From the IMG/VR virus record IMGVR_UViG_3300001533_002366, positions 1 to 56,832 of that record: a DNA stretch of 56,832 bases; one strand, 5' to 3'. This document shows positions 28,737 through 30,926 of this stretch, in pieces. Source of the DNA: a virus. Its lineage: Duplodnaviria; Caudoviricetes. The stretch's first letter is position 1. Each line of letters begins with the position of its first letter. Below the pieces are notes generated by a model. It worked only from the letters and a program-made list of their open reading frames with translations, was not told the origin of the DNA and made no database searches. The position numbers were made by a program, and so were the translations under genes.

Positions 28737-29231
28737 GTGGAAAAAAAACAAACACAAGGAATTGATAATATTATAGAGCAAGTAAAAAAAGATGCTGATG
28801 ATAAGTTTTTGAAAAAAATAAAACAACATACAGAAAGAGAAGGTTTAGTAATTGATAAAGTATCAACTGCTTTACTTGACAAAAACTTTTCTCCATTAAT
28901 TGTCCGAAAATACCAAGTGGAAGGATGGCCATTATATATCGGTCTAATATGTGATATAAGTTTATCCGATTTGGATCATCTTATTTGGAAAATAATAAGA
29001 GATAGTGGACAATTAGAAAATGATATACAAAACATAAGAAATCTAACAGGAATCATTAGTGACAAACTATTAGAACATTATAACAATATAAAAGAAGGAT
29101 GTGTGGAAGGAATTGCAGTAATATATTACTGTGATAAAATGATGGTCTCCTCTTTGTGGGGAGATTTTATGACTCACCTAAGTTGTAAAATGGAGTTATA
29201 TAGCATTATACAAACACTTCCTCACATATAA
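28737..29231 (+). CDS. Hypothetical protein
   Basis: GTG start with GGAGG RBS. Confidence 0.6.
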   Translation: MEKKQTQGIDNIIEQVKKDADDKFLKKIKQHTEREGLVIDKVSTALLDKNFSPLIVRKYQVEGWPLYIGLICDISLSDLDHLIWKIIRDSGQLENDIQNIRNLTGIISDKLLEHYNNIKEGCVEGIAVIYYCDKMMVSSLWGDFMTHLSCKMELYSIIQTLPHI

Positions 29232-29255
29232 TATTTTATATAAGGAGAATAAAGC

Positions 29256-29777
29256 ATGAAGATTATTGAATTATTAAGACAAAAGAAGATTATCAAAAAA
29301 CGAATGGATGACAATATCAGAAGAATTCAACAATATTCTTCGATGGTTTCTGTAGAAAAAGCAATATATGATACAGAACAAAAACAAAAAGAAGAAGTGA
29401 AAAAACTTATCCAATCAAATGTTGATCTATTAAAACAAATAATGAAAGTTCAAAGACAAATTGAAGAAATGAATTTAAAAACAAAAATAGAAATTGATGG
29501 GATATACTATACAATTAGTGACCTCCTTCTTCTAAAAAGAGGTATGATTCAAACTATGGTCAGAACATATGAAGCTCTAAATGACCAAGAAGGAAAAAAT
29601 AGAATGATGTATTATCGATCTGATGGAGGAGGAAAAACATATAATTCTCAACCACAGCTTGTACGTCTATATGATGAAGAAGTAAAAAATAATGGTCTTA
29701 ATGTATGGAAATATTTTGAAGATAATATTAATTCAAAATTAGAGATCGTAAATGCTACAACTGATGTAACAGAATAA
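29256..29777 (+). CDS. DIP1984-like coiled-coil protein
   Basis: Pattern MK..E.L...K....R; I...N..T.I...G...TI.D.L; C-terminal ..L...NATT, recalled as typical of the DIP1984 family. Confidence 0.55.
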   Translation: MKIIELLRQKKIIKKRMDDNIRRIQQYSSMVSVEKAIYDTEQKQKEEVKKLIQSNVDLLKQIMKVQRQIEEMNLKTKIEIDGIYYTISDLLLLKRGMIQTMVRTYEALNDQEGKNRMMYYRSDGGGKTYNSQPQLVRLYDEEVKNNGLNVWKYFEDNINSKLEIVNATTDVTE

Positions 29778-29801
29778 ATAAGTGAACAAATAAAAAAGAA
29801 T

Positions 29802-30095
29802 GGGGTTTGGTTACGTTAAAAAGAGAAAATTTAAGAGCCCAATCTAACAGGGAATGTTAGTTACTTGACATGACTTTTTGTATAGAAATTTAGCAACAAT
29901 TTCTACGCAACATCTAATGTTTAAAGATAGAAAGACTAAAGTATAAGTCGGTCCCACCGATGATAAAACAATGGTTTTAAAGATATTAAGATAAAAGACA
30001 GCAAGATAGGGCAGTTTAAATACTGTAGATAAATCCAAGATTAAGTGGAGTCCCTCTTAAGACTACTCACCACTCTTGGCTGTAACATAAACCCC
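29802..30095 (+). ncRNA. Candidate structured ncRNA with AAG repeats
   Basis: 5' GGGGTTTGGTTACGTTAAAAAGAG pairs with 3' CTCTTGGCTGTAACATAAACCCC; several internal hairpins; GAACAAATA motif upstream and T-run downstream. Confidence 0.7.
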
Positions 30096-30126
30096 TTTTT
30101 AACTTTATTGGAGCATTTATATATAT

Positions 30127-30411
30127 ATGAAAAAATTTAAAAGTGATGGTTGTTCATTTTTCTTTAATGGAAATTGGAAAAAATGTTGCATAGAACATGA
30201 CAAAAAGTATTGGAAGGGTGGTACAAGGACAGAAAGAAAAAAAGCTGATATTGAACTAATGAAATGTGTTCTATTAAATGGACACCCTTTTATTGCATTT
30301 ATAATGTATGTTGGAGTAAGAATAGGAGGATTATCTATATTACCAACTCCTTTTAGATGGGGGTTTGGATATAATTGGCCATTCTCTAAATCAGAAGATA
30401 AAGATATATAG
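30127..30411 (+). CDS. Conserved hypothetical protein (DGC...CC..HD..Y, PLA2-like motif)
   Basis: SDGCS, CCIEHDKKYW.GG...R..AD, RWG.G. Confidence 0.6.
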   Translation: MKKFKSDGCSFFFNGNWKKCCIEHDKKYWKGGTRTERKKADIELMKCVLLNGHPFIAFIMYVGVRIGGLSILPTPFRWGFGYNWPFSKSEDKDI

Positions 30412-30443
30412 AAAATTCATTTTTTAATTGAATAGGAGAAATT

Positions 30444-30926
30444 ATGAATGAAAGTAAAAAACAAACAATTATAGTTGCACCACACCCAGATGATGAAATT
30501 ATTGGATGTTATGAAATTCTAATTAAAGAAAAACCAATAATTATTTATTCAGCATCTACAAGTAAAGACAGAAGAGAAGAATCTATAAGATTAAAAGAAT
30601 TTGTAGATATTAATGTACAATTATTTTTAGAAACAATACCCTCAAATTTCATAAATCCAGACACTACAATCTATATGCCTGATCCAAATTATGAAATACA
30701 TCCACTACATAGACAATGGGGACATATTGGTGAATCAATAGCAAGAAGTAAACAATCTAATATTATCTTTTACAATACTACAATGACTGCACCATATATT
30801 CATGAAGTGGGAGAATCAGAAAACAAAGAAAAACTCCTAAATGATGTATATACAAGTCAAAAATCTTTGTGGGAATATGAAAAGAAATACATACTTTTTG
30901 AAGGATATTGTAAGTGGATATTTTAA
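30444..30926 (+). CDS. PIG-L/LmbE-family deacetylase-like protein
   Basis: APHPDDE..G, R..E, HP.H, Y.SQ. Confidence 0.75.
   Translation: MNESKKQTIIVAPHPDDEIIGCYEILIKEKPIIIYSASTSKDRREESIRLKEFVDINVQLFLETIPSNFINPDTTIYMPDPNYEIHPLHRQWGHIGESIARSKQSNIIFYNTTMTAPYIHEVGESENKEKLLNDVYTSQKSLWEYEKKYILFEGYCKWIF

Follow-up and report, generated by a model that had tools for sequence, protein, structure and literature searches.

A conserved, pseudoknotted phage RNA inherited together with the gene for a remote DUF6847/DIP1984 relative

To our knowledge, large and intricately folded RNAs without a known job are rare, and most of the major examples have proved to be central machines. One such RNA, ROOL, has a length of ~580 nucleotides (nt). 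According to the accessible text of a report on GOLLD and ROOL (10.1101/2024.12.08.627333), both are pseudoknot-rich phage RNAs of unknown function that are often located near tRNA islands; GOLLD sometimes holds tRNAs in a linker region and many of its members are longer than 800 nt, and no protein partner is identified for ROOL in that text. A different kind of system is represented by HutP of Bacillus subtilis, which, in the accessible part of its description (PMC2425495), is a hexameric antiterminator for downstream hut genes that recognises the A and G of XAG triplets, reading two clusters of three such triplets that keep a 7-nt register, flank a stable stem and lie just downstream of hutP. 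In this study, we analysed a stretch of phage DNA of 56,832 bases (hereafter, the window), which is the entire IMG/VR virus record IMGVR_UViG_3300001533_002366, and we describe a structured RNA at positions 29802-30095 that adjoins the gene for a 173-amino-acid (aa) protein.

The 173-aa open reading frame (ORF; 29256-29777, + strand) is followed by a 349-nt gap (29778-30126) and then by an ORF at 30127-30411. A preliminary description of the window, made from its letters alone, had held that this gap contains no credible ORF, and both the ORF list, which has no credible one there, and the homologous elements bore this out. Positions 29802-30095 (+) are a conserved structured non-coding RNA, a closed scaffold of a 13-base-pair (bp) stem, three pseudoknots and further helices. 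Phages that have diverged widely from one another have inherited this RNA and the gene jointly and on one strand, and no third gene is conserved with them. As judged by sequence comparison, the RNA belongs to a previously undescribed phage family with two forms, type 1 (that of the window) and type 2, neither of which matches Rfam. On these grounds, we see a slightly better than even chance that positions 29802-30095 are a discrete RNA of ~294 nt from an undescribed phage family that forms a two-part RNA-protein module with the 173-aa protein.

The whole window gave no match to Rfam 15 at the gathering score, only chance-level matches were obtained at E ≤ 10 in 29600-30300, and scans of 20 related loci returned tRNA and transfer-messenger RNA (tmRNA) only. 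Permissive Rfam scans of loci L043 and L110 yielded only the embedded tRNA described below and two sub-threshold matches, and the covariance models of GOLLD and ROOL gave no match, even at permissive thresholds. The earlier remark that the RNA cannot be assigned to a known family therefore holds for both types, since neither matches Rfam 15. A literature search found no description of this RNA; in the accessible text of the IMG/VR screen of Fremin et al. (PMC10690425), the candidates are of 29-151 bases only, and fragments of this RNA are possibly contained in its supplement. The family was found solely in metagenome-derived sequences, namely 59 viral contigs and 10 contigs of metagenome-assembled genomes (MAGs), which may account for the absence of an earlier description. 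A search of 50,697 deposited phage genomes for relatives of the two protein types found none at E ≤ 1e-3, and a blastn search of 29256-30450 against deposited phages produced zero matches.

The features of the locus, with the pseudoknots designated PK-A, PK-B and PK-C and the closing stem designated P1, are as follows.

29256..29777, + strand: 173-aa partner protein, a remote DUF6847/DIP1984 relative modelled as a helical bundle with one β-hairpin (ORF, Pfam, NCBIfam, AlphaFold2, Foldseek).
29784..29792, + strand: candidate phage promoter-type motif GAACAAATA, 9 nt before the 5' stem of the RNA (overrepresented in the window).
29802..30095, + strand: whole structured RNA, type 1, from closing-stem strand to closing-stem strand (nhmmer profile match at 29801-30098; match of covariance model R1 at 29910-30095, 115.2 bits; no Rfam match).
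29802..29815, + strand: 5' strand of P1, consisting of P1a (29802-08), the unpaired G 29809 and P1b (29810-15) (RNAalifold columns 8-14/381-387 and 16-21/373-378, with compensatory changes).
29831..29837, + strand: 5' strand of PK-C, TTAAGAG, with its partner at 30054-30060 (partner-swap test).
29838..29860, + strand: PK-A, in which CCC 29838-40 pairs with GGG 29850-52 and CTAACA 29844-49 with TGTTAG 29855-60 (partner-swap test, stem 1 weaker than stem 2).
29861..29914, + strand: variable hairpin region, of variable length and sequence in alignment A4; type-2 relatives hold a whole tRNA at the equivalent place.
29915..29947, + strand: heptad tract 1, U-N-A-A-G-N-N, with AAG at 29924, 29932, 29939 and 29945 and AUG as its first unit (invariant T, A and G columns in a 7-nt register, alignment A5).
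29947..29974, + strand: central hairpin (29947-51/29957-61; 99% paired, 4/4 pairs compensatory), ATAAA linker and PK-B, in which loop 29954-56 pairs with 29972-74 (partner-swap test).
29978..30005, + strand: heptad tract 2, with AAG at 29980, 29988, 29995 and 30003 (repeat statistics).
30028..30039, + strand: conserved block GAUAAAUCC, then CCAAG, which pairs as a 5' strand with CTTGG 30075-79 (stem 100% paired, 3/4 pairs compensatory; block conserved in alignments A2, A4 and A5).
30044..30074, + strand: helix P-x, AGTGG 30044-48/CCACT 30070-74, around the hairpin GTC 30050-52/GAC 30061-63 (87% paired, 3/3 compensatory), whose loop CTCTTAA 30054-60 is a strand of PK-C.
30078..30095, + strand: invariant GGCT (no variation at G, C and T in A5), followed by the 3' strand of P1, made up of TGTAAC 30081-86, an AT bulge and AAACCCC 30089-95 (RNAalifold pair table).
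30096..30100, + strand: TTTTT run right after the closing stem, a possible 3' end or terminator tail.

We computed the minimum free energy of the gap and compared it with those of dinucleotide-shuffled sequences. The + strand folded to -77.4 kcal/mol, compared with -59.4 ± 5.1 kcal/mol for the shuffles (z = -3.56, with 0 of 100 shuffles as good), and the - strand gave z = -2.56. The ends are joined by the 13 bp of P1, in which GGGGTTT (29802-08) pairs with AAACCCC (30089-95) and GTTACG (29810-15) with TGTAAC (30081-86), and all 13 pairs covary in relatives. RNAalifold, applied to 17 elements, recovered the closing stem, the central hairpin and the CCAG/CUGG stem, with compensatory changes in 17 of 22 pairs. 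Covariation of the closing stem, found with RNAalifold, answers the earlier proposal to look for a conserved stem of this kind after homologous genes. The long-range end pairing that had been read from the window was supported for these two helices but not for its inner portion, AAAGAG with CTCTTGGC, which was without covariation support; instead, CTTGG (30075-79) pairs locally with CCAAG (30035-39), and CTCTTAA (30054-60) pairs with TTAAGAG (29831-37).

The small hairpins noted earlier fared differently. CTAACA/TGTTAG (29844-60) is real and forms one stem of PK-A, and TCGGT/ACCGA corresponds to the conserved central hairpin, whereas CAGT/ACTG and TAGAAATT/AATTTCTA are located in variable-sequence regions. 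The family gives no support to TAAAAC/GTTTTA, part of which falls in the ATAAA linker, a conserved stretch without pairing, and TTAAG/CTTAA is in competition with the long-range pairing that covaries. The earlier reading did not include the three pseudoknots, the type-2 form with its tRNA or the association with tRNA islands.

The pseudoknots were first proposed from reading the alignments and were then tested independently of column register. In this partner-swap test, the best helix formed with the partner segment of the same element was compared with those formed with the partner segments of other elements (16 sequences, 240 non-cognate pairs and 2000 permutations; L014, which is ~93% identical to L013, was excluded). 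The own partner was preferred for PK-B, formed by the loop of the central hairpin and the segment after ATAAA (own 5.06 versus other 3.89, 0/2000 permutations), for PK-C, formed by the 5' UAAGAG and the loop of the 3' hairpin (6.28 versus 4.94, 0/2000), for stem 2 of PK-A (5.00 versus 3.52, 0/2000) and for helix P-x (6.19 versus 4.57, 0/2000), and the preference was weaker for stem 1 of PK-A (3.31 versus 2.95, 25/2000). Neither of two negative controls exhibited this tendency (3.03 versus 3.35, 1931/2000, and 4.62 versus 4.74, 1417/2000). When an explicit structure including PK-B was evaluated on a model-based alignment of 24 elements (A6), 81.9% of cells were paired, compared with 63.6% in shuffles, and 18 of 22 pairs were compensatory; the covariation score was 0.462, compared with 0.158 in shuffled alignments (0/500) and 0.085-0.125 when partners were slid by 1-3 columns. 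Fixed-column pairing on A6 was lower for PK-B (66%) and P-x (68.5%), owing to a one-column shift in some rows. The covariance model R1 covers the 3' core only (alignment A5), and the full-length alignment A4 has 454 columns.

One pair of P1 is G-U in 17/17 sequences and another is U-G in 14/17, and because these pairs are conserved, the + strand is the RNA strand. All profile matches likewise lie on the strand of the gene. Among 24 homologous elements, no conserved ORF was found, the longest stop-free stretch being 24-102 aa (median ~49) on either strand, and the lengths of the elements (281-331 nt) do not differ in threes.

The AAG periodicity reported earlier was confirmed: the window contains seven AAG spacings of 6-8 nt, whereas dinucleotide shuffles had 0.91, and none of 1000 reached seven. 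The repeat unit is a heptad, U-N-A-A-G-N-N, arranged in two tracts of 4-5 units, one on each side of the central pseudoknot. A spacing of 7-8 nt was observed for 86 of 223 AAG gaps in type 1 (9.3 ± 2.9 in shuffles, maximum 18) and for 91 of 193 in type 2 (10.2 ± 3.0, maximum 24); L030, L034, L038, L052 and L053 were excluded from these statistics and from the type-2 closing-stem test owing to mis-picked or atypical motif anchors. A U precedes AAG by two bases in 114 of 126 units, and the invariant columns of A5 are the U, the first A and the G of the heptad, with the middle A replaced by C or U in some members. Heptad runs outside the element were near chance in the window (9 three-unit runs versus 6.9 expected) and the four-unit runs there were all inside long ORFs, and target sites elsewhere in the window were therefore not seen. 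Tandem Repeats Finder (TRF) detected no tandem arrays in 29100-30300. The idea that AAG units pair with the anti-Shine-Dalgarno sequence or the tRNA-Lys anticodon was considered and left aside; the anticodon-like loop CUCUUAA of the window covaries with an internal partner instead.

For the analysis of linkage, an alignment of 28 homologues of the protein (A1) led to 59 viral-contig loci and 10 MAG loci, 69 in all, the latter labelled Synergistaceae, Acidobacteriota, Deltaproteobacteria, Pirellulaceae or unclassified; a search of the viral contigs with the 173-aa protein alone found nothing, whereas the alignment-based search succeeded. A search of 90% clusters gave 83 homologues of ~170 aa, and an exhaustive search gave 321 cluster representatives at 50% identity (E ≤ 1e-3). 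Many loci, ranging from 26 to 65% in G+C, keep a gap of ~300-400 nt after the gene. Over 313-370 nt 3' of the gene, L007, L009 and L017 share 62-66% of their DNA sequence with the window, and their proteins are only 39-44% identical to that of the window. A sequence profile detected a type-1 element on the strand of the gene in all 23 loci from L007 to L029. The distance from the stop codon to the start of the element is 4-17 nt in 22 of these loci, 429 nt in L018 and 24 nt in the window.

Across the 69 loci, two of which end too soon to be evaluated, the element follows the gene, with the same orientation, in 57 of 67 (32 of type 1 and 25 of type 2, the latter tallied with an nhmmer profile because R1 detects type 2 weakly). 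In L049 (2063-2214) and L065 (934-1090), a type-2 RNA is found directly upstream of the gene on the same strand, so that the order is swapped and the pair is kept together, and L030, L034 and L035 contain a variant element, recognised by eye, without a downstream profile match. The type-2 profile also matches the type-1 elements of L024-L026 (E 3.6e-16), and the two types are therefore one family. The converse search, starting from the RNA, gave a similar picture: R1 produced six matches in 107 genomes of one family, with the gene upstream in five, while the sixth is on a short contig whose retrieved part ends ~125 nt from the match, and a pattern scan for the RNA alone returned 38 stretches, 5 of them real, with the gene upstream in 5/5, all on contigs already in the locus set. 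No other protein-coding neighbour was conserved, the next largest cluster comprising 4 of 51 loci (exact or near duplicates L008, L012, L015, L025, L026, L029, L035, L041 and L056 were excluded from this clustering). The suggestion that the RNA is tied to the upstream protein as a dedicated module thus agrees with the position of the covarying element, and a comparison of the regions downstream of homologous genes, which had been put forward as a check, found a similar element in these 57 loci, in addition to the two in which it is just upstream.

Type-2 loci retain a 5' block, GAGAUAAAA, both heptad tracts and a 3' block, ..CC.GGCUUCC.., and the ends of 18 type-2 elements pair in a sequence-specific manner (own 7.47 versus other 4.68, 0/2000 permutations). 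In 12 of 18 well-anchored type-2 elements, ARAGORN identified a full tRNA inside the closing stem, at the site of the type-1 variable hairpin, and those scanned with Rfam scored 41-67 bits. Because the anticodons differ between loci and some anticodon loops are irregular, the embedded tRNA looks like cargo rather than a defining part. More generally, one or more tRNA or tmRNA genes, up to nine, were found within ~5.5 kb in 38 of 49 scanned loci; in L032, a tmRNA (1806-2161) lies upstream of the gene. We also noted unusual anticodon calls (ACT, ATT) or irregular '???' loops in the ARAGORN output for L037 (1497-1572), L040 (3316-3391), L052 (3232-3307), L064 (3121-3207), L038 (3117-3205) and L046 (3300-3383). 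Located within or next to type-2 elements, these may be structures that resemble tRNAs but do not work as such.

The 173-aa protein is a remote, sub-threshold relative of DUF6847/DIP1984. It scored 19.3 bits against Pfam DUF6847 (PF20935; cut-off 27), with relatives at 18.2-26.7 bits, and 19.5 bits against NCBIfam DIP1984_fam (NF038048; cut-off 70), with relative P0062 at 45.9 bits, and a graded series of homologues links it to PF20935. An AlphaFold2 model built with 86 sequences had a predicted local distance difference test (pLDDT) score of 94.8 and contained five helices and one β-hairpin. The best Foldseek match in the PDB was 3kdq_A (E 2.7e-3, prob 1.00, TM 0.56/0.62, root-mean-square deviation 7.6 over 172 columns), an uncharacterised protein of Corynebacterium diphtheriae and the sole meaningful fold match among 37 (next E 1.5). 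The earlier name, DIP1984-like protein, is accordingly supported by the fold but falls below the curated sequence cut-offs. Searching PDB sequences with profile A1 gave no match, and the viral structure library and protein atlas returned uncharacterised proteins only, apart from one atlas row for the Siphovirus Gp157 family (TM 0.69), which was not treated as informative. No toxin-like fold was present among the structure matches. In a literature search, no RNA partner was reported for DUF6847/DIP1984, a family of unknown function. The PHROG label 'tail fiber protein' (phrog_1491, E 2e-6) was not adopted; it covers the helical N-terminal two thirds, and there is no conserved structural-gene context.

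Modelling supports self-association of the protein through a symmetric two-chain interface. With four copies, ipSAE was 0.66 (runs 0.67, 0.66 and 0.65), compared with 0.00 for the best control; of the proteins with solved structures, 20 of 30 that form pairs and 1 of 23 that are single chains reached the mark, counts that hold only roughly here because four copies and our own alignment were used. The runs agreed in at least 86% of contacts, partner pLDDT was at least 82, and the interface involved the same residues on both copies. This model, a helical bundle with one β-hairpin and a symmetric pair of chains, gives no support to the ring-shaped, TRAP- or Hfq-like binder that had been imagined. 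The near-invariant residues are mostly polar (N73, N166, Q44, Q53, D57, T72 and E163), which, as a remark only, would suit base-specific contacts.

The motif GAACAAATA, which the preliminary description took to be a phage promoter, occurs 13 times in the window (at 2858, 6989, 12937, 16118, 18931, 22230, 25042, 25449, 25910, 29784, 39524, 50965 and 52948), compared with 1.9 expected, and 0 of 100 shuffles reached 13. When read against the ORF list, most copies stand shortly 5' of ORFs in the matching orientation, and GAACAAA is likewise present 5' of the RNA element in L007, L009 and L017. Because it is overrepresented and mostly lies just upstream of ORFs of matching orientation, the motif is a plausible candidate for a phage-specific promoter-type signal, of which the RNA has its own copy. 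At the other end, a run of at least four T's follows P1 in 15 of 24 type-1 and 10 of 18 type-2 elements; in the window, a simple terminator scan made no call at TTTTT (30096-30100). In five loci labelled Synergistaceae (L104, L107, L110, L111 and L113), a GC-rich inverted repeat was seen by eye between the stop codon and the 5' stem of the RNA, within the first ~60 nt, and it may separate two transcripts there.

From these observations, we propose that the RNA and the protein probably work together as an RNA-protein particle, and we infer that the one binds the other. The RNA would be made from its own promoter-type motif and would end at the U-run after the closing stem; the self-associating (dimeric) protein would recognise A and G in the heptads, each half taking one tract, in a manner akin to the reading of two XAG clusters at a 7-nt register by HutP, with an unrelated fold; and the resulting particle would act within the phage module of tRNA and translation support. 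A bolder proposal, tentative and on the whole doubtful, is that this is a new class of phage ribonucleoprotein in which a dimeric DUF6847-like protein reads two U-N-A-A-G heptad tracts on a triple-pseudoknot scaffold, located in a tRNA island, with an optional built-in tRNA cargo, and acts on the tRNA supply or the host translation apparatus during infection. If true, it would provide the first function for the DUF6847/DIP1984 superfamily, as a sequence-specific RNA reader, and a new fold for triplet-repeat recognition. In any case, the RNA is a third, unrelated family from the phage tRNA-island setting of GOLLD and ROOL, with a dedicated partner gene that offers a direct experimental handle and a first functional lead for an uncharacterised fold; the regular heptad tracts make the binding hypothesis easily testable by mutation. 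The earlier interpretation thus survives as regards a closed structured RNA with periodic AAG that is new to Rfam and tied to the gene, and not as regards a ring-shaped binder or a toxin-antitoxin pair.

Several observations weigh against the view that the RNA and the protein form a module of this kind. PK-B has just 3 bp in the copy of the window, the U-run after P1 is missing in 9 of 24 type-1 elements, and ARAGORN found no tRNA or tmRNA genes in the whole 56.8 kb of the window. No element was found in L039, L055 and L056, and the RNA is ~1.5 kb from the gene in L045 and 429 nt away in L018. In L057 (3134-3605; Rfam 125 bits) and L061 (3138-3566), a true tmRNA starting ~110 nt after the homologous gene takes the place of the new RNA; because these loci are related, with 78% identity over ~205 nt downstream, this replacement counts as one event. 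The protein family is not markedly basic (median isoelectric point 6.97; above 8 in 34 of 86 members, and 9.05 for the protein of the window). The solved relative 3KDQ may help the self-association model, which was run outside the calibration of the tool, and the adjacency of RNA and gene could stem from co-expression or regulation instead of a stable complex.

Among the alternatives, the one that survives best, although we regard it as unlikely, is that the RNA is a machine in its own right, as proposed for ROOL and GOLLD and perhaps as a multimer, with the protein just a co-expressed helper, chaperone or regulator. The elaborate fold with its three pseudoknots and the lack of a strongly basic character in the protein family would suit it, as would the phage and tRNA-island context and the embedded tRNA, which are shared with GOLLD as far as the accessible text goes (10.1101/2024.12.08.627333). 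However, ROOL has no identified protein partner in that text, whereas here the gene accompanies the RNA (57/67 loci downstream plus 2 upstream, and 5/5 evaluable cases when starting from the RNA), and the conserved, apparently unpaired heptad tracts resemble a binding platform.

Quite unlikely, in our estimation, is a cis-regulatory RNA of the HutP kind, in which the protein would bind both tracts and switch a terminator composed of the closing stem and the U-run, controlling read-through, often into tRNAs. The layout matches that of hutP in the accessible part of its description (PMC2425495), a T-run follows P1 in the majority of both types as counted above, and tRNA genes often follow; but the downstream genes are not conserved, the RNA is upstream of the gene in L049 and L065, type 2 has a tRNA inside it, and the copy of the window has its own promoter-type motif. 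In addition, a 300-nt fold with three covarying pseudoknots and an end-joining stem far exceeds the needs of a terminator/antiterminator switch, and no alternative, mutually exclusive pairing was found.

We consider it very unlikely that the pair is a decoy, sponge or toxin-antitoxin-like system, in which the RNA would sequester either its own protein, in a CsrB-like or type III toxin-antitoxin-like way, or a host factor, for example an enzyme that targets tRNAs or a nuclease used in defence. Short repeated motifs are typical of sponge RNAs and are present here, in a phage setting with tRNA context. However, there are no tandem repeats of tens of bases, no target sites were seen, the heptad runs elsewhere in the window being near chance, and no toxin-like fold was found. 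A PADLOC scan of five proteins gave no significant match (three weak ones on two proteins, E 0.0018-0.074 and 9.5-15.2 bits, and none on the other three). The type III reading in the preliminary description is not supported by these findings or by the position of the RNA downstream of the gene. Finally, it is hardly credible that the region is no RNA gene at all but coding DNA in decay or an element that acts as DNA, such as an origin or a site of packaging or attachment. Short repeats can mark origins, and the - strand, too, is somewhat more stable than its shuffles; however, the covarying pairs are those of RNA, with G-U pairs among them that could not form on the opposite strand, the element has a fixed orientation relative to the gene and no ORF is conserved.

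As to the surroundings, the window is probably a fragment of a very large phage, because its CheckV completeness is 18% and its G+C content ~28%. The 94-aa ORF after the RNA (30127-30411, +) has a C-C-x2-H-D-x2-Y motif, which we take to be reminiscent of secreted phospholipase A2, and matches phrog_6098 (E 1.2e-13). Its relatives (51-59% identity) occur in five viral loci, none of which yielded an RNA-like element; L005, the only one in which the ORFs were inspected, belongs to a GC-rich phage whose context differs. Relatives of the 164-aa ORF before the gene (28737-29231) and of a 160-aa PIG-L-like ORF (30444-30926; 20.1 bits against Pfam PF02585, a sub-threshold score) are present in a few loci among the closest, e.g. 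L009, and the wider neighbourhood is therefore common to a small set of related phages and not to the whole family.

We compared the module with other described systems. In ToxIN, 36-nt units repeated in tandem make up the ToxI RNA, which precedes the gene for an endoribonuclease toxin; the new locus likewise has a protein gene beside a repeat-bearing RNA in a phage-related setting, whereas its units are of 7 nt, inside a large fold, and lie downstream of the gene for a helical protein. A TRAP site consists of ~11 (G/U)AG triplets with 2-3-nt spacers, bound by a ring of β-sheet subunits, in contrast to the AAG spacing of 7-8 nt (4-5-nt spacers), the 4+4 units and the helical protein model found here. 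In the bacterial Ro60-Y RNA system (YrlA), a closing stem joins the ends of an RNA that has a tRNA-like module inside and is encoded beside its protein. The new module has a closing stem, an internal tRNA module and an adjoining protein gene as well, but its tRNA can be absent and, when present, reaches the scores of a full tRNA (41-67 bits), no Y RNA was matched in Rfam, and the 173-aa protein has no Ro-type domain in Pfam. The tmRNA that works with SmpB resembles the new RNA in its ~300-400 nt, paired ends, several pseudoknots and occurrence in phage tRNA regions; it differs in that the new RNA has no tag reading frame and its ends do not fold into an acceptor and T-arm like those of a tRNA, and neither ARAGORN nor Rfam RF00023 finds a tmRNA in the window, whereas the same tools find it in L057, L061 and L032. 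The strands of RNase P P4 resemble GAAAAAUCC...GGCU, but such a reading was rejected on inspection, as these strands enclose only ~45 nt, the positions after the would-be bulge are unpaired and there is no Rfam RNase P match.

Two systems come closer. No HutP family match was obtained in Pfam and no HutP entry was among the 37 Foldseek matches, and the likeness would lie in how the target works: as far as the accessible description of HutP extends, the AAG clusters (29924/32/39/45 and 29980/88/95/30003), in a 7-nt register around the central pseudoknot and downstream of the gene, are arranged like its binding sites. Unlike HutP, which has three triplets per site, the new RNA has 4-5 heptads per tract on a closed 300-nt scaffold, with varying downstream genes and a helical protein. 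Like GOLLD and ROOL, as these are portrayed in the accessible text, the new RNA is phage-encoded, near tRNA islands (38/49 loci) and pseudoknot-rich, and like GOLLD it may enclose a tRNA (12/18 type-2 elements); unlike them, it is of ~300 nt, with its own adjoining protein gene and two heptad tracts. By analogy, HutP would thus be the nearest documented mechanistic counterpart, and GOLLD and ROOL are the nearest by setting.

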